This document shows, one piece after another, positions 2,267-50,327 of a DNA stretch of 64,000 nt. Under the pieces are notes generated by a model, which was given only the letters and a program-made list of their open reading frames with translations, ran no database searches and was not told the origin of the DNA. The DNA is from Sphyrna mokarran (taxonomy: Eukaryota). A program made the position numbers and the translations under genes. The stretch covers positions 13,640,001 to 13,704,000 of the forward strand of contig JAGIQG010000032.1 in assembly GCA_024679065.1 (NCBI GenBank), read 5' to 3'. Positions within the stretch are counted from its first letter, which is position 1, and every line of letters starts with the position of its first letter.

Positions 2267-2360
2267 CTCATCAGTTTGGGTGAACTGTTGGGTGAATTTC
2301 GCATACCTCCATTTCGCTGCTTCTTTTTGGGTGACAGAGCTGATGGGTTTTCATCTTGAA
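2267..2360 (-). CDS. KCNMA1: KCNMA1 constitutive exon (94 nt): (L/F)[30 protein letters not shown](R)
   Basis: Acceptor cttccatatgtttgcag|TTCAAG and donor GATGAG|gtaaga; phase 1-2. Confidence 0.97.
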
Positions 2361-8300: not shown

Positions 8301-11300
8301 TTACTAGGCATGGTGGAACTGGTTACATTTAGATTAGGCAGTGTACAGTAGTACTATTAAGTGAAACGGCCCCATTTAATTCGTTAATTTTTTAAAAAGC
8401 ATAATTCAAAACTAAAAATTAGAGTGCACTGATTACTTGAATAAAAATGTCTAAAGTATTCAACTATTTAATTATTTATTTTCACAAGGATTGTTTCCTT
8501 TCTATATATTTAATGCCCTATCCCTGGCCTTATGAAATCTGAATGAAGCTTTCTAAATGATAGTGTACATTAAAGGCAATATCCATATTTGGCTCAGCTA
8601 AGCAGTGCTCAAATAAATACCATAGTCCATGTCACTGCACTTTTTAGTTTAACCACCACATTGTTGTTCCCACATTACAACGACGCAGAACAGCAAGAAA
8701 CCACACTTAGCTTTTAATGTAGCATTAAAGAGGCACATGCTATTAAAACATCAAATAGACAGAAGACAGTAAATCCAATCTTGAGTTCCAAAAATGTTCA
8801 TGGAAACAACGGATTGCTGCCCTCTTCATGGTCTTAATGATACCATTATAAACACTTGCTCCACCTGCAGGAATGTGGCTTTCTCCCAGGTACCTGTGTA
8901 ATTGTCTGGAGTCCATTTCAGCTTCATTCAAAGATCATTTTTAGAACCTTTAAGATTACGCTTCTTGTGTAATATGTTCAGAGGACGAGCAGACTGGAAA
9001 TCAGGATGGAGTTGGGGAAGTGACAGAGGACGGCTCAGCAGGCATTTCAAATACGTCCAGCAATTATTTTTGATCAATGGGCAGAGCAGCACTTCAAGAC
9101 TTACCACAAGCGGCAGCTCGAAGGAGCCAGAGCTCTGCTGACGTTGCTGGCACTTGAAGATTCGGCAGAAAGGAGCTGCTGATATAGATATTCTTCCTCG
9201 ACATGTTTCACTTACAGCTTGCCTCCTCCTCCAACCTCCCCAGTGCCTCTTTACAATTATGGGTGGAATAGCTGAATTGGAGCAACTAAGAAGGTCCCAG
9301 GTGTAATCCCGGTTTATGTTGTGTCAGGCAGATGGGTGGGTGACCCAAACACTCTGGGTTAGAGAGGCACAAATTGGCTCTGCATCATTGAGAGGGATGC
9401 ATGTTTAAACATGGAGCTGGAAACATTTCTGTGATTGTTTCCCGCTTGCATTCTCATACCCCCGTCAAGATAAATAATAACCATTCAAACAAAACACCAG
9501 AGGGTGACCAGCATTTCTGTAACCATACCATGTTAGGAATCAAAACCTTGAAGAACTGGGGAGAAAAAATACAATCTAATTCAAAGGCCAGTACTTCAGT
9601 TAAAGAGCCCAGATATTTGACCCTATGTGTGTTGACTTAGGCACAAGCCAGTGACATAAATGAAGAGGCTTAAGATTCAAAAGATCAATATCAGCCATTT
9701 CATCTGAGCAAATCTTGATTATGGCTGATCCCAGTATCACTGACGTCTAATTGACAAAGTGGCTGCAAAAAAAACCCCAACTAAAATAGATAATCACTGC
9801 ACTCCAACTAGAAGGATAAATCTAAAGGAATGGAAACAAACTGCAGACGGGCAAGGCAGGTGGGTTAAGGGGAGAACACGGGAAAAATAAATCAAACGGA
9901 AGGCAAAAGGGACAGGGATAAATTAATTGTTGACAAACCAATGACTTACTTGAGCTGATATATCCGTTATAGCCATATTTTGCTGAAGATAATGCAAAAA
10001 AAAATGACAGGTTAAAAGATGCAGAAAACAAGAATTATGTTTCATGAAAGGTCAATGTGAAGCACAGGGAAAAGAAATTCAATACAGGGGACCTTACGTT
10101 TTAAAATGTCAGGATTGGTAATGCACTCCACTCAGTGTCTCCCATACATGTTACTAGTTGTATTGCTTCTTGTGCTCATCTCTATATACAAATGAACTCC
10201 TAAACTAAGTGATCACTAATGTATAATGGGTGACATTCGTAACACCACCAAAAATGTGCTGAAAATGATAAGGCATATATCTCGTAATGGCCATTAGAGA
10301 TCCTCGAGCCAATACAAAAATTCTATCACCAGTTTGGATCCTGAGGAGAGATGCCCAGGTGTACGAATCTCTATTAAGCTTGTTGTAAAGTTTAGTATTC
10401 ATTTCCACGCCCCGCGCCACATTAATACCAACAGGAGAAAGGGGTATATGATGCTGGCCAGCAGGCATGGCACATTCTGAAGTCAAATCAAACTAGGCAG
10501 TTGAACCATAGATGTCATTTGCAGAGTGAACCAGGGAAGCTGCTGGGAAAATACCTTTGAAGTAGAACATAGAGCAATGAAGGGATTGTGAAGAGGAGAA
10601 AAGTACATAGTTCAAGAAAGGAGTAAGCCTCCATAGTGAAGCACCAGGCCAGAATTCGGATAGAAAATGAGTTCAATCCCAATTATCCCGAAGAAACTTA
10701 ATGAAAGAAAACTGCAGTGCTAAATTGAGGAAGTAAAGGGATAAACTAATTGTTTGCAAACCGATGACTTACATGAACTGATATATCTGACAGACAGCAC
10801 CATAAGAGCTCTTTGCAATCTAAGTAGCTTTTGCTTTTCTGTGTGGTGTTCTACTCTGGAGATAATGCTAGCAGAAGAATTGCCTCACTAAAATTATTGA
10901 ATTCAGTGCTGACAAGTGCAATTGCTGTCTGCATCTGGATAGCCTGGGCGGAACTCTGTTTCTAATGCAGGCTGACTTGAGGAAAGAAACAGGAGCTGAA
11001 ATTTGCTTTGAGCCTGCTCTGGGTGAAGGTTTGCGCTTCTCCATAAAAGCTTTTGTATTATTCACAAAAGGTCACTCTTTGGACTGAAGGCAGGAGTGTG
11101 ACAGAAATGTTCCCAGGAAACAGTTCTTGTCCTGGCATCTGTCGCATGGAATAGTCCAGAGCGGAAGGGCTCCGAAAAATAACTGCTGAGCATCTGTCTT
11201 GCACAAAAAATGTTGCAAGAAGATTCTGCTGCCTGGTGGTAAGAAACTGTCAGGGTGAGTTTCATGACAACCAGCAACATTCAGAAAATGAAAATGCAAA

Positions 11301-25283: not shown

Positions 25284-25457
25284 AGGCACGTAAACTGGTG
25301 GAGCAATCATTAACAGAGACAGAAGAAAGTGGGAAGGTTCTCTCAAGGGTGTCCAAGTTACTATGTACACTGTCTGACATGCAAGTGCAGTCACGCTCAC
25401 AGCGTCCGCAATCAAAACAACATGCGAGTTTCATTCTCTTGTAGATGGACATCTTGG
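25284..25457 (-). CDS. KCNMA1: KCNMA1 STREX cassette exon (174 nt): (P)KMSIYKRMKLACCFDCGRCERDCTCMSDSVHSNLDTLERTFPLSSVSVNDCSTSLRA(F)
   Basis: Acceptor aacatgattatag|CCAAGATG and donor GTGCCT|gtaagt; 174 nt, phase 1-1; the peptide is visible inside ORF 25111..25509(-). Confidence 0.98.
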
Positions 25458-28853: not shown

Positions 28854-28862
28854 AATAGATCA
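28854..28862 (-). CDS. KCNMA1: KCNMA1 alternative 9-nt microexon (IYF / e20) at splice site C2
   Basis: taactgcacactggtag|TGATCTATT|gtgagt; phase 1-1; gives CKR-L-I-Y-F when joined to the 94-nt exon. Confidence 0.92.
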
Positions 28863-30869: not shown

Positions 30870-31004
<135 letters not shown>

Positions 31005-33533: not shown

Positions 33534-35299
33534 ACAATAGACATTTTGAGTAGCAATAACAGACACCATAACAAACATTTTGAGTAACAGGCAGCTTACA
33601 TGAAACCAGAAACATTTTCAATTCCTATCTGAAACTATAGACCCCATTTCAACTTAGTAGAAATGAATGAGTTTGAACGATTTAAAGTAAGGAACTAATC
33701 TGAGATGAAAATTTTATATAATCTGATTCAATGGTGTGACAACTTGCAAATTTTAAATGACAAAAAGCAGAGGCTTTATGATTGTAAATCAGCAAAAAAG
33801 ATTGAAACAGAATCAGATTTTTTTAAAAAGGCACCCTTCTCTAATTTCCACATTCACATCAATGGCATGGTTAATTCAGGCTTTTATTATTCTGTTAACA
33901 ATTTATTTCAAAAGCCAAACCTCAAAATCTGTAAATTCCCATCAGGCAGAGCAAAGTGTGCTGTTGAAAAACACACTGGGAATGTAAAGAAGTATTAATA
34001 ACTCTTGTCTGTTTAAACTATCCATGAATAGTGTGGTTCTTAACTGTTTAAGTGCAAGTGACCACAGTCCAACAGCATTTTGAGAAGACTTAGTGGTATT
34101 CGTGGGATGGTGCTCAGTCTTCTAGTAGAACTTGCACTTCAGCTAGCCATTTCCCACTAACACCTAGCTGTATCAATGAATTAAGCCCAGTTCAGTGAGT
34201 GAGTGGATGTTGACCAGTTCTTTCAATAAAGACTAATATGACATTAACTGGTATTAATATGTATTAGCATTTCACTGGAAGAAAATTTAGTCTTGAATGT
34301 CATTATCCTTTTTTGAGGGGTGAAAATAGGGAGCATCATGAAAAGACCAGTCTGGAGGTTTTGCTTATCTCCCAGTTTTTCAAGATTCAGCACTGTGCTC
34401 AATGGCATTGAAAACAATCCACATTGTTGTGTTTGGGCGGAGTAAGCTTCGCTGAGTCTTAACACTGTTATATATAACCAAGGGGTTTTAATGTTTTCAC
34501 TAGGTATGCTGAAGGCAGCCTCTCAAAGCTTTGCTATCATAGGTTGCACAAATGCAATTGCATCCCTTCCTAATTATGCAATTATGTTCGTAGCTTTTCT
34601 GATAATAATGTCCACGTTCAGAAGGGAAATCCTTTCGTTTTTAAGATCAACAAACTCTTTCCTTCCTCTGCACAAATTTTGACTGGCATTAATGATCAAA
34701 CTTCCAATACTAGCCAGGGATGCCTGAGACTCTTGGCCATGTGGTGTAGCCCATGATAGGTATTGGCACTCTTGATCAGTTTACTGGGAACACTTTCAAT
34801 CACTTGGGATTTTATCTGGCAATGTGTTCCCTTCTTCCCTTGATTGACAACCATAGTTGGACAAAGAAATATTGTGCACATAGCAAGTCTCATCATAACT
34901 GAGCAGCATTTAGAACAGACAGTTGAATTTGGCCTTCTAGCCTACTAGGGCAACTACAAAGTTTCCAGATATGTTTATAAATTTTGAAGTATTCCACATC
35001 TATTTAGCCTTTTACAGTACCAATACTGAAGAATGTTTTAGAAATAACACCAAATCAGAGAGATGCCTAAAAACTCTCACCAGAAGTTATGAAAATACTT
35101 TAATAACATATAGGATGAGTTACATTGCTGGATTACAAATAATAATACTGTCAGATTTGTTCTGATATCTTAACAGGAAAAGCAGAATTCCTCCTTCTCA
35201 CTCCTCCAAAGAAAATATATGGGAGTTTATATTATTTGGCACATATCATCATTAATTAAAAACAGATCACAATTGTGTATATATCAAATCAAGCAACTA

Positions 35300-35428
<129 letters not shown>

Positions 35429-38400
35429 CTATGGGAGAAAAGCATTGCTTTGATGACACATGAATTAAAGGGAATAGTTCAAACATCCTCAATGCAAAGG
35501 AAATCGCTCTTATTTGAACTGCACTTAGATTTCAGTATCTGCATATATTCCAACAGATGACTACAAATGATTTAATTAATAATGGAAAGGAGCTGGTTTA
35601 TTAGACCCATAATATTAAGACGCATGACAAGCAAAGCACCATATGCTTAAAAACATATGTCCTTAAATGAATTCTATTTTACCCAATTTGAAAGCCTTCT
35701 GATAACAAAGTAAAGCACAGGCTATATAATTTTAATCTGGATGATGTAACTCATTGCTAATCACAATCTGAATCAACAATGGAAGTGGTTTGAAATTCAA
35801 TTTACAGGCTGATTTTTCTTCTTTTGGTTATGATTGCTTTTCTTCTACAGAGAGGTAGTGTCTTTTGGCGCATATTTATTTGTTCTGGTTTGCCATCACT
35901 ATTTTTCTTTGTTCTATTTTGTTTGGAGTTCTTCTCCTTCTTGCTTATACTAGGACATGCTCTCCAGCTAAGGTGGCCCAGTGGTGTCTTACTTTCATGC
36001 TTCCCCACCGCTCCTGAGCTGATTAAGACAAGGAGATCTCTGAAATGAACTCCTCTGATTTTGATTCAGTGTCCCCTCTGACAATACAGCTCGTAAGCAG
36101 AAATCCGCCAGTTGAATAATTTCTGATAGAGGGGACTGGACATTGGCTAGAGTTTGACTTACAAATTAGTTACATTTAAATAACTAACCAATCTTATATA
36201 GGTAAACAAATCTTCATAGCACCATTTTGGTGAAGGAACTACGGACGAGATTCTTTATCCATTGACCATACATTGATTGAAAATCTAGCACTTTTTTTTC
36301 CTTAAAGTGAAGCTACTATTCTCAAATAATTTAAAAGGACAGAAACTGCAATGTCAAACAAACAAGTTTCAGTAGTTTGTGCAGTTCCTCTGTCACTGAA
36401 AAACAATGTGTGCTGAGTGCAACATCATTAATTAACTGTATCTTATCATTGGTTAAAATAACAGTCACAATTATTTAAAGGTAATACACGTCAAGCGTAC
36501 AACTACTGCACGGCACAGCTGTATGTTAAATTAGTTAGCTGACCCAAAGGAAAGAGATGGCTGGTACGTGTTATTGACAAGAATCCCAATCCTTGTGGTT
36601 AAATGGGCTGTTGTCTGAAATCTTCCTTTAGTCCCAATTGTTTACAATAAACATCCAGCTCTTTCCTCTGGCCTTTCTCAAACTACTTGGTTTCATATAG
36701 TTCTACTTTCATATCCAAAGGCTTTGATTTTTGGTAGAAAGAACAAAACAAAGATGAAAAGGAAAGGTAGCAGTAGAGAAAGCGCACTCGAGAGAACGCA
36801 CATTCACAAATAAAGCACAGTGAAATCTGAATTGCTTCCAGGGTTGAACTCCTTGCAGTTGCTGATTTACAAGTGTCATTAGTAGGGCCAGCTCCTTTTG
36901 GATTGCTGGTATTATGCCAGCACCACCTCTCCTTAGATGCAATTAAATTTCACAAGGAATCTTCAATGTCTTGAGGCAATAACCAGATTTTTGTTTCAAA
37001 TTTTCTTCCTATTCGTTCTGCCTGATTCTTACGTTCATTCATTACTTAATAGCTATTCCTTCAATTTGCCTCATCCTTGCCTCTCAGTTTGCAACATTTC
37101 TGGAGTCCAGTAGAATGGGCCTTAGCCCCTGACTTTGCTTTCTCAATAATAACAAAACGTTCAGAAATAAACCTGCTATTATTGTTTCCTGCAAGAACAT
37201 TTCAGAATGGCAATTCTGCTTTTAAAATCAAAATTCATTAGCGGAAATATAAAGAAAATCTGAATCAAAACCAGACAGATCCATGAGCATCAAAGCTAAT
37301 GAGTTTTGTCAACGTATTTTTGTTCTTATTTTAGATTTACTGCACTGATCTTCACCTTTCAATTTTCCCCATTTTCTTGTGAGCCATTTTTGCAATCTCC
37401 ATGTTGTTTCAAGTATTTTTATTGTCTCACAAGCTTTTTTAAATTTCATCTAATAGTTCCTGATTTTCAATAAAGCGGTTCATAAATCGCTTAATACAGT
37501 AGCTTCCTCTCTGTGACAGCACCTTCTGATATTCCCTCATCATCTTTTATCCTTCTAACTTCCTTAAGCTGTTTATGTGCCAGCTCTCATTTTCTGTGTA
37601 TTTCCAACATCTTCCACTTCTGTTAAAAGTTAGTTTCATTTCCAACACAAAACATATGGAATATCCCACTGTACATATCCTGAATTGTTGAGAATCTGCT
37701 AATATTATTCGACTTCTATAAACTGATGCTTCATTTGAAATCAAGTAACTTTATAGCAACTAATTAAAAAAATCTAACTTTCATTTATGTAACACCTTAC
37801 CACTGAACAAACCATACTAAAATATAACGTTCATTTAGACATGTCCCAACTGCAGAGAAATAGCTAAGCTGTAATGTTGACTATGTGTTCTAATAACCCT
37901 ACTTCCTGAAATGAATTCTGAAGCTTGAATCCAGATATGTTGAGTTGTGGGTATCCAGTTCATTACTGATATTTTCCAACAGAATTTTTAAAAGATAGTT
38001 TACAGTTGATGTTTCGGGTGAATCAAATGTGTATGGACCTTCCATACAGCACTATTGTTGGACAAAACACTAAGAACGTTGCACTTCAAGGTTTTTCAAA
38101 GAGTAAAATATAAATGATGCAGTTTATATCATAAAACCATGGTATGTATAACAGCATCATAGCTAGTTAGGTGAAAATAACTTGTACTTCTATATATACG
38201 ATTATGTTATTTACTAATATCAAGCTATGTATAATATTCATAGTACAAGAAAAAAAGCACTTAACTATGTGTTATCACTAATACAAGGTCTTGGTACCAT
38301 AATCTAGGCTTAAACTGCATTATGTGTATTTTTATAATTTAGACCACAGTATGTATGTACACATTGTACACTGGTGTATATGCCTCCATATTCATGTAAG

Positions 38401-39842
38401 CTTTCCTTTCTTTATAAATAGGGATCTGATTTCTGCAGAGATCAGATCCAATCTAATATTCAATTGGAACTGTAATTAGAATATAAATTAATAAAAACCA
38501 AGTCTCAGTATAGATTTCCATATATCAGCAAACTGTTCATACAAGGTTGACTTATTAACAGATTAAATTTTAACTAGAAAATCACAGAGTAATCCCAGGA
38601 AGCAAATTTCTGTTGGTATAGAGTTCAGTTCACTGTGGTAATGACATGCTTTCACCACAAACACACACAGAACAACAATATGCAACAAACAGCTCCAAAA
38701 ATAGAGGTACAACCATTGCAAGCCATATGTGACTGCAGGAACTAGTGTTGGATGGCTGAATGGCACTGGAAACTCTCCTATTTTTGTTTTACATGTATCA
38801 CTACACACAAGCTTAGAGTCAGACAAAGGATGGAGGCAAGGGACAGACACAAAGCAAAAGAGGAGAAAAAAAGGGGCAATCCATGGAAAAAGAGAATAAG
38901 CAAGGAGTTACTATGCTAGTTGGGTCAGCAATCAAATGAGGCTTGAAAAATTGAAACAAAAATCATGAAAAAATTCAAAGATTCAAATTGGTATCTTTAG
39001 ACTAAAAGGATACTGCCAAAACATTAATTTATTTCATGCATTAATATTTCACTCAATGTCAAGCAGCAAACAGGGTTTGGTTGTTGGGGGTGGGGGTGGT
39101 GTGGGTGGGCGCAGATGACAAGTGGCTGTCTTTAATAGTGGCTTGGGAGACAATCTGCAAGCTTGCTAAAGCAAGAAAAACTGTGAAGAAATGGTAAAAA
39201 ACTGCTTTCTGAAATATGTATTTCCACATTTAGTAAATTGACTATGTAAGTATGAAACGTGAGCAGTTACCATCAGGACATATTAAAATGATCATTGTTT
39301 TAAAAAAAATCATCATTAATTAGCTAATGAAATTAATTTGTGACTATTCATTTTTTCTTTTCAATGAATTCACAGACAACATTAAGTACTGTTTAAGTGT
39401 ATGAAAATCTGAAGACAGACAATGTGTAAGACATCAATTGAAGACTTTGACAAGCAGACAGCATAATAGCATTTTGGCTGACTGACATTTACATTACATC
39501 ATCATGGGGGATGGGGTGGAATAAAAGTTTACGGCAGCAAACGTTTTCATATGGAATGTTGGAGACACAATCTGCGAGACAGCGAAGAATAAAGGACCAT
39601 CTAGAAAAATATATGCAAATATCACGTTCCCCCCCCCACATAAATTAGTGCAAGGACAAGAAGTTTAAAAAAAACTATAAATGTCAAATGTTGACTAAAA
39701 TATGTTGTTATTTAGTATTATCCTGCTGACTTGGTGAGAGTAAAAGAATGAGCACTCTGGGAAATGCATAGCAAAGCTGGAAGATGTAAAGAATTGAAGA
39801 GAAAGTTAAGGTTGGTTGGAAAGTAAATGAAGAGAGTTTTAC

Positions 39843-39854
39843 CGCTTGGCACCT
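39843..39854 (-). CDS. KCNMA1: KCNMA1 alternative 12-nt microexon at splice site C1 (SRKR position); inclusion gives RES-RGAKR-ILINPG
   Basis: ctcttgttgtttacag|AGGTGCCAAGCG|gtaaaa; 12 nt, phase 2-2, ends AAGCG like the SRKR exon, lies in the correct intron after a long U-rich tract. Confidence 0.85.
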
Positions 39855-40436
39855 CTGTAAACAACAAGAGAACATTTCAATCAAATGCCATGGTAGGAAC
39901 AAACAGGTTGCAAAAAAACAAAAGGAAACATTCCAACTTGGCAAACATAAAACAAACAAAACAGTTTTGTTCCTTCAAAAACACAGATGTGGCAAAACGC
40001 AAAAAAACATAAAAAGGAATCCTACAAACAAGAACGCAAAGTTTGAACTTTGTTCTATTTTCTCCAAGATGTGATGGGATTACGAAGATGAATCTGTACA
40101 TTCCAAATATATTTTGGACACTACTCTTGGGCACTCGCTACACTCCTTCATCTATGTATTTCACCCTAAGATGTGATTGGCCTGTCATTATTCATGATAA
40201 TTGTGAGTTTCAATGGAAGTTAATCAAGCTTTCCCTTCTTCCTTCCTCCCATTTGTTCATCACGTCAACATAGTAAATGTCCCTAAGTTCTCTCAAATTA
40301 AACAAGTTCTACTACTTTCCTCTGTTAAAATCTTTCATAAACTTTCAGGAAAAATAACTAATGAAGATTCTGGAAACATACAGCAGCTTAATCAACATCT
40401 GACATGTCTTTCTCACCAAAACTAATGGCTGAAACA

Positions 40437-40752
40437 AATCATAGAATCCTACACTGCAGAAGGTGGCCAATCAGCCCATCGAGTCTGCACCAACCACAAT
40501 CTCATCTAGGCCCTATCCCCATAATCCCATGGATCTACCCTAGCTAGTCCCCTGACACCAAGGGGCAATTTAGCATGACCAATTCACCAAACCTGCACAT
40601 CTTTGGACATGGGAGGAAACCAGAGCACCTAGAGGAAACCTACACAGACACAGGGAGAATGTGCAAACTCAGCACAGACAGTGACTCAAGCTGGGCATTG
40701 AACCCAGGTCCCTGGCGCTGTGAGGCAGCAGTGCTAATCACTGTGCCATCCC
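40437..40752 (-). mobile_element. HE1-type V-SINE, full length
   Basis: A/B-box head, V-domain, tail ...ccttctgcagtgtaggattctatgatt. Confidence 0.92.
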
Positions 40753-43197
40753 GAAACAAAGGATTCCAACTGAACATTAACCTTTTTTTGCCTCTTTCAG
40801 CCGATTGAGCTGCCATGTTTCCCCAACATTTTTTTAAATAAGTGCCTTAAGATGCACTTGTTACCAAATTACTCCAAATTTAGACTTTACAAAAGTTTCT
40901 GTAACATAGAACCCAATCAATCCTATTTTTAATGGAAGCGATTGGACAGGAAATGTATTTTACATTAGGCTGGCATATAACATTGGACACATATAATGAC
41001 AGTGAGAGGCTGATTAGACATGCTAATTAGCATTGGTTGATACATAGCTCTTCATATGAACAGTTCATTATGTCTTACGGTGTCTGATGTATGCAATATT
41101 GAGTAGAAGGTTAATACTATATTTAAATGAAATTAAGATCAGTTATCAGTACAAATACCAAGCAGTGCTATCCTAAAAGTTCTTCAATTGGATATCTTCG
41201 AGATTATCTTTTGATAATAAAAGTCGCATTCACTTGTGCATTGTGAACCCTTCATTAGTGGCAATGAAAGGAATTACATGGTGTTAAGTGCATTTATATT
41301 TTGTCAGTTCAATGAACAACTTAAGAACTGTACAGTATAGGCCCTTTAATGATCCTGTTTGCAGAAAATTGGATCTAACATGAATATGAGACACTAATTT
41401 GGCCTCATTTATTGCCTTTGAAGACCTGATGCCCTGGGAGCAGAAGCTCTCCTGGTCCTAGGCTGAAAGTACAATACTGATTGGATTGTCCAGATCTATT
41501 TGTTTCAATATAGTTTAGCATGCTTTGAATAGTTTTTAAACAAGCAACATACAGCTTCAACCAGTTTTGCACAATCAGATGCTGCCAGGCACTACACCCA
41601 ATTTGAAAGAGCTCTTGGAATGATTGTCTTCAATTTAGCACCTAATACATGTCTACATCTGTGAGTGGATATTTAATCTTAGTTCTTAAGAATTTACAGT
41701 GCATATTACTGCTAATTGGGATTAGCAGTGAATCAATAATGATTACTTAATGCAAATAAGTGGATTAAAGTACAGTTTGCTTAACATGAGGCTGCTTCCA
41801 TTAAGTGGCTTCTACTGTATTAATGAATAAAATCAGCATCATTTATCTCCTTTCACATTTAAGGGCAACTATGTCTGAACTGCATTCACTTTATAATATA
41901 TACAAAGCTTTGCTTCCATTTCATATATACTGTTACGTGGAAATATGCCTGAACTGACTTTGAATGGTGTAAACTAGTGCTAGATGAGATGGGCTATGCT
42001 CACAAAGCACTTAACTGCTGTCTATGGCCAATGGCAATCAGCCTATTCCAAAAATGACTAATGAGCAAGTGCTTCCCAACCATGCATCACATAACCTTCA
42101 AAGATTCCTGGACAGTACTTAACCATCAATCATGATGACTGCAGGAACTAAGTAAGTATCTGTAGGAAGTTACTTTGAAATCTAGAGGCATTTCTGATTA
42201 AAATGATGGTAAACTTGAAGAATGTTAACAATTAACTATAAACAATTAACCTTGTTCGGCTCTGTTATGATAATTGTAAAGAAGAACATGTTTTACCAAG
42301 AGTGTACTGTCGGAAAGGTAATGATATTCCCATTAGAATGAACAGAGATCAGCACCACCATGGTACTACATTTTATACTGGCTGCAATGATAAAACAATA
42401 CTACTGTCAGCCTTTAAATACTCCTCTTCCCTTTTCAATCACTGTTGAAAGCAAAACAGTGGTAGGTGCTTCCCTAATCATCACAGGACTTTTCTGACTC
42501 ATTCTCATTTCTTTGTACCTCCCGCATGGGTTTACTTCTTTCCAATATAAAACAAGCAGAATCCAACATTAGTAACCGAGTGAAACAGTTGGTGTACTTT
42601 CTTTATTTACTTCAGGTTTTTAAGACATATTTGTTCAGTTTTTCAAAAGGAGGGAAAAAGACTAGTTGCAATGTATTTTTGCAAAAAATATTTAATATCT
42701 GCTTGATGTGTATCAGTTTATAAAAGTGTGTTCCATTAAAAGAGATGGAGTAACAAGTAAATGAAGGATGATATTGATATGACCAATTAATCTGATTTTG
42801 AAGAAATATTTAGATATTTAATGTCCTGTTAGTTAACATTCCTTGCAGTACTCATGGGCACAATGTTTTCAATAGTATGTTGTGGGAAGAATCACTCCCT
42901 CAATGAGTTAAGGAAACACATTGGGAGAATTATAGATCCCAGGAATTATTTCAATTGTACAGCTTTTGAGTCTTTCACTCCACTCTGCAACCAACATGGG
43001 AAAGGGATAAAAGGCTCTAACAGGCTTTTAATCAGATTCAAGCTGCCAATGTGAAATGGAGTTAGAAGATGCTGAGTTTGTAGCAACAACTGAAATGTCT
43101 TTGTCAACACTTAGCGTCCACTTGACAGTTCGGTCGATTAGAAAGACTTGTGATGCAATTAATACTCACAATTCACAAGAAAGGCTGTGGCACTCAC

Positions 43198-43266
43198 CTG
43201 CTTTCCCTTGTGTCCGATTTGTATTCTATGGCTAACAATAACAGCTTCAGTTTCACAAAACAGAGC
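43198..43266 (-). CDS. KCNMA1: KCNMA1 constitutive exon (69 nt): (E)[22 protein letters not shown](S/R)
   Basis: Acceptor ttgccttccatttacag|GCTCTG and donor AGCAG|gtgagt; phase 2-2; matches Slo1 [17 protein letters not shown]. Confidence 0.97.

Positions 43267-50216: not shown

Positions 50217-50327
<111 letters not shown>

Follow-up and report, generated by a model that had tools for sequence, protein, structure and literature searches.

A GAKR-encoding 12-nt microexon at splice site 1 of the BK channel gene kcnma1 in the shark Sphyrna mokarran

Introduction

The closest described counterpart of the exon reported here is the SRKR exon at splice site 1 of mouse Kcnma1/Slo1 (Shelley et al., 2013; PMC3840924). 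According to the available text of that paper, SRKR right-shifts the G-V curve of the mouse channel and phosphatase abolishes the shift. Mutation of the serine of SRKR itself (S644A) left the G-V relation unaffected, while S642A, just upstream of the insert, abolished the SRKR shift and S642D mimicked it, S642 being presented as a constitutive site. The authors proposed that S642, in the presence of the insert, comes to lie in a loop and away from the hydrophobic ILI. A commentary (PMC3840922) agrees and, in its available part, treats the kinases at S642 as an open question; the available text of neither article names a kinase for this site. The effect of SRKR in human, chick and turtle clones was small or mixed, according to the same part of PMC3840924.

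Related inserts are present in deposited elasmobranch proteins. The site-1 exon and the mouse mechanism are already known, and GAKR and GAKC are already in GenBank, in a protein of the shark Scyliorhinus retifer (AWO14627.1) and in a skate clone (AJP74816.1; King et al., 2016), respectively. The latter originated from mRNA of 100 ampullae, as stated in the available text of 10.1101/274449. We found no publication remarking on the GAKR or GAKC insert; figures or supplements of Bellono 2017/2018, King 2016, Jones 1999 and Miranda-Rottmann 2010 may show it, and the letters GAK are absent from the portions of 10.1101/274449 and 10.1101/2020.01.27.922161 that could be searched. GAKR is apparently a new sequence variant of a known exon that has passed without comment in the literature.

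Results

The window, a stretch of 64,000 nucleotides of the S. mokarran genome, lies inside shark kcnma1 (BK/Slo1 alpha) on the minus strand, and the kcnma1 exons found in it have canonical splice sites (Table 1). A whole-protein search of the genome returned one kcnma1 locus (contig C905) and a more distant BK paralog (C894:15499111-15598414; 38-63% identity by exon), which is likely Slo3/kcnu1 (name inferred). The exon starting with ILINPG had one match in the whole genome.

Table 1. Coordinates of the kcnma1 features in the window
Feature	Position	Strand	Basis
12-nt cassette microexon, BK splice site 1 (SRKR position)	39843..39854	-	AG/GT, phase 2, junction R-GAK-R, same peptide in AWO14627.1
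U-rich AG-free zone upstream of the microexon acceptor	39855..39938	-	82 nt between AGs
Constitutive exon LCFVK...KSDTRES, carries the mouse S642-equivalent serine	43198..43266	-	splice sites, phase
Constitutive exon ILINPG...KEVK (end of RCK1)	35301..35387	-	splice sites, matches solved BK structures
kcnma1 exon IEEDT...AVCE	50218..50327	-	canonical splice sites
kcnma1 exon AFFY...CGCKR	30875..30951	-	canonical splice sites
Candidate 9-nt IYF/IYS microexon at the STREX site	28854..28862	-	TAG acceptor, weak pyrimidine tract
STREX exon, 174 nt	25284..25457	-	canonical splice sites
33-nt alternative exon (P)KYGYNGYISS	9950..9982	-	as in AWO14627.1
kcnma1 exon QDENP...PKLMR	2267..2360	-	canonical splice sites

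Judged by its sequence, the 12-nt segment on the minus strand (AGGTGCCAAGCG) is an optional cassette microexon at splice site 1 of the shark gene. It is bounded by the acceptor TTACAG and the donor GTAAAA. The upstream exon ends in phase 2 after RES, and the predicted junctions are RES-RGAKR-ILINPG with the microexon, as the earlier note had read it, and RES-S when it is skipped. The host intron of 7,810 nt contains 24 candidates of the form AG-12nt-GT, and no other among them yields a junction peptide with KR at its end. The same note had seen no second exon coding for SRKR in the intron (35388-43197), and our search among AG..GT/GC cassettes of up to 18 nt likewise gave none. When the intron was simulated with a second-order Markov model, 3 of 300 runs produced a KR-ending AG-12-GT cassette by chance, and 0 of 300 one with comparable splice signals.

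The AG-free zone before the microexon is 48% T, versus 33% for the whole intron. The gap of its acceptor is the fourth longest among the 492 AGs of the intron, and on the minus strand of the window 31 of 4,071 AGs have a gap of at least 82 nt. A branch-point-like match lies about 30 nt upstream of the acceptor. Neural microexons of the SRRM4 type have a long U-rich AG-free region upstream and a UGC close to the 3' splice site. The former is present here, and the latter is not, since there is no UGC closer than 58 nt upstream. A high-copy repeat, recognised by very high contig depth, lies about 600 nt upstream of the microexon (about 40430-40500). We also compared three runs, one of them presumably RNA, with 35000-40500, a stretch outside which the upstream exon lies; near relatives covered the intron, and no joint at the microexon was seen, the differences listed ending before it.

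With regard to nucleotide likeness, the SRKR primer printed in the available part of PMC3840924 supplies 11 of the 12 letters of the mouse exon, and the mouse exon given in the earlier note agrees with all 11, the twelfth letter falling outside the primer. The shark microexon matches 6 of these 11 letters. We rejected this likeness as evidence, because 183 of 300 simulations were at least as similar. What supports the exon is therefore its position, phase and splice signals, together with the transcripts of relatives.

To the mouse exon, the shark exon is alike in junction, length, phase 2 and K-R end, and both lie just downstream of the conserved serine (mouse S642; Shelley et al., 2013, available text). 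They differ in having S-R there and G-A here, so that, as first noted, a serine and one arginine are lost while length and phase are kept. The junction formed by skipping also differs, being RES-R in mammals versus RES-S in the shark and most non-mammalian sequences of our tally. In mammals, use of the insert varies with time of day, according to the earlier note.

That tally comprised 446 proteins, taken from top search matches and cluster listings and not a random sample. The site-1 junction was RSRKR in 235, skipped with S in 148, RGAKC in 16, SS in 13 (bird and reptile models) and skipped with R in 9; the remainder comprised four lamprey proteins with a 14-residue insert, one each of RSQKR, RGAKR and SCQMR, four models of other kinds and 14 proteins whose junction could not be read. 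RSRKR was found in bichir, gar, teleosts, lungfish, reptiles and birds, and RSQKR in coelacanth. One BK sequence in the PDB has RSRSR. Among the best of 1,763 matches to the GAKR-bearing region, only three GAK-type cluster representatives stood at the top. No chimaera or hagfish sequence occurred among the protein search matches and cluster listings.

The single RGAKR is AWO14627.1 of S. retifer, whose RES-RGAKR-ILINPG junction is identical to the one predicted here, and which, like the window, also contains the 33-nt exon KYGYNGYISS. It comes from another species, and the neighbouring exon reads KSNTRE in place of the KSDTRE of the window. Because this difference tells the two apart, GAKR is common to two shark species. 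We take AWO14627.1 to be the clone reported from ampullae by Bellono et al. 2018. The same RGAK insert occurs at site 1 in skates, in the clone AJP74816.1 and 15 Leucoraja and Amblyraja gene models, with a different last residue, Cys (RGAKC). By its sequence, the terminal Cys of the skate insert may be a site of lipidation or redox modification at the RCK1 loop. The skate clone KY355737, which has been recorded from, has mutants named KR655 and SVLS674 in the available part of the source. Depending on the start codon, these names fit insert-bearing numbering (K651 + 4). A pore-residue number that we take to belong to KY355737 does not fit this numbering.

Among the 117 cartilaginous-fish proteins, 100 skip the exon and 17 include it, and 11 shark and 7 batoid species have skip forms only among the proteins tallied. 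The first protein search was biased toward skip forms, and the largest shark/ray cluster has 100 members, of which the 85 outside the tally may hold further GAKR forms. Included and skipped forms both occur in Scyliorhinus (different species), Leucoraja and Amblyraja. In lamprey, one predicted model (Petromyzon marinus XP_075921862.1) has a four-residue insert at site 1 as well, again with Arg as its last residue and with a different peptide (SCQMR). The lamprey models show two unlike site-1 inserts, this one and the 14-residue insert, which ends in CLAC.

Other alternative exons of the gene were also compared. The product of the 9-nt candidate (LIYF/LIYS) is found in 16 of the 117 cartilaginous-fish proteins. 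The STREX peptide of the window is identical to that of Scyliorhinus and one to four residues off those of four batoid genera, which by itself points most probably to a shark. The KYGYNGYISS exon, scored by its RY/KY start, is present in 26 of the 117 proteins, though according to PMC10486799 the insert occurs in the Bellono skate clone only. The acceptor of the ILINPG exon (35388-35393, minus strand) is a tandem GAG-TAG, and use of its upstream AG would add one Ser; RES-SS is the junction of the 13 SS proteins in the tally. Upstream of the window, the gene has its two mutually exclusive pore exons, SYVPEIIELIG and RYVPEIAALIL, next to each other (L002:297-389 and about 474-570). An AlphaFold model of AWO14627.1, made from a 28-sequence alignment, had a mean pLDDT of 27.7 and was not used in our conclusions.

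Discussion

The shared site, phase, length and KR end lead us to infer that the GAKR exon is orthologous with the SRKR exon, and the microexon would then date at least to the jawed-vertebrate ancestor. Since one lamprey model has an Arg-ending four-residue insert at the same junction, the site-1 microexon is probably ancestral to vertebrates, the lamprey insert, known here from protein sequence, being a putative orthologue. The earlier note spoke of SRKR as rewritten. This is apt for the third codon of the exon as counted on the junction peptide, where Ala is likely the derived state in elasmobranchs, because bony vertebrates have R and coelacanth and lamprey have Q. It goes too far for the preceding residue, at which lamprey has C and the codons of S, G and C are one letter apart, so that the direction between S and G is not fixed.

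What the insert does in the shark has to be judged by analogy with mouse. With GAKR included, the terminal loop of RCK1 would be longer and would gain basic residues, three in the shark (from 0 to 3) as in mouse (from 1 to 4). The conserved serine, which the shark keeps as the RES serine closing the upstream exon, would be left open to phosphorylation, and the phosphorylated serine is predicted to reduce opening of the channel. Relative to this serine, the shark retains Arg at -2, +1 and +5 and Lys at +4. Repositioning of the loop and its distance from ILI depend on the length of the insert and not on its serine, which favours an SRKR-like action. We consider it reasonably probable that the GAKR exon acts like SRKR in mouse, perhaps more weakly; its effect may be smaller because Ala replaces the Arg at +3 from the serine. 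Both the mechanism through S642 and the finding that the exon serine can be dispensed with come from mouse, and their carry-over to GAKR is by analogy.

The earlier note hinted that loss of the exon serine may change the phosphorylation-dependent regulation. This is not supported by the mouse data, since S644A was inert (PMC3840924, available text) and the shark keeps the equivalent of S642, and we predict that the loss is neutral. Arg to Ala at +3 would then be the only substitution left as a functional variable. The lost Arg could nevertheless be essential, because no S642 kinase is named in the available text of PMC3840924 or PMC3840922. Moreover, RSRKR is nearly invariant in bony vertebrates (235 against one RSQKR among the 446 proteins), which suggests that its residues matter and counts against the SRKR-like action, as do the further loss of Arg in skates (GAKC), the many cartilaginous-fish proteins lacking the insert and the small or mixed SRKR effects in the human, chick and turtle clones.

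On the other hand, GAKR may be a functionally distinct variant, in which Arg to Ala (and Arg to Cys in skates) removes the basic determinants of the kinase. What remains would be a spacer insensitive to phosphorylation, which electrosensory or hair cells might combine with the alternative pore exon. The basic residues after the serine drop from four in bony vertebrates to three in the shark and two in skates. Furthermore, the pore exon RYVPEIAALIL is present in all 17 insert-bearing cartilaginous-fish proteins, and the insert in none of the 76 with the canonical pore exon. The skate ampullary clone has both, both pore exons are present in the shark genome, and the alternative one is reported to lower conductance (10.1101/274449, available text). 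Yet the 17 proteins, which represent three species, are not independent: gene models account for 15 of them and may all be based on the same skate cDNA. The alternative pore exon also occurs without the insert in 24 cartilaginous-fish proteins, the exon serine is dispensable in mouse, and the shark keeps the Arg and Lys positions listed above. On balance, a distinct function is a possible but rather unlikely explanation.

The association with the pore exon raises the possibility that inclusion of the microexon may be enriched in sensory cells, which we regard as a lead only because of this non-independence. The relevance to electroreceptors urged in the earlier note is weakened for sharks, in which Kv, rather than BK, was reported as the carrier of the electroreceptor K+ current (PMC11057056, citing Bellono 2018; available text). 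A bolder proposal is that in cartilaginous fishes the ancient microexon of site 1 has become an exon of sensory cells, spliced in together with the pore exon of low conductance, GAKR and GAKC having shed basic residues required for S642 phosphorylation. We hold this to be doubtful. If it were true, the BK channel of electroreceptors would be uncoupled from a kinase switch kept by bony vertebrates, skates would have gained a modifiable Cys, and the published elasmobranch BK recordings would be of the insert isoform, unnoticed, with the shark gene models missing the exon.

Still less likely is a relaxed, near-neutral microexon, that is, a harmless frame-preserving insert in a surface loop, rarely included, whose peptide drifts in cartilaginous fishes. 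The 18 shark and batoid species with skip forms only, the weak donor GTAAAA and the lack of a nearby UGC are consistent with it, and so is the skate Arg-to-Cys change, which takes one C-to-T transition at the final CG of the exon, given the phase-2 junction. Drift does not sit well with the invariance of G-A-K between sharks and skates or with the kept U-rich AG-free zone, and the exon is included in both deposited sequences that are not gene models. Automated annotation can also miss a 12-nt exon unlike those of curated proteins. Finally, a chance AG..GT pair, unused as an exon in S. mokarran, would account for the chance-level likeness to the mouse letters, but it is highly improbable, because the segment encodes exactly the insert of another shark's deposited protein and no simulation gave a comparable candidate.

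These results do not change the view of BK channels or electroreception, and would do so only if the reading of a distinct function were true. They do indicate that the tallied shark gene models omit an exon that is present in a deposited shark protein. Moreover, they bring together a natural series of substitutions in one regulatory loop, with SRKR in bony vertebrates, SQKR in coelacanth, GAKR in shark, GAKC in skate and CQMR in lamprey. This series can be used for testing which basic residues license phosphorylation of S642.
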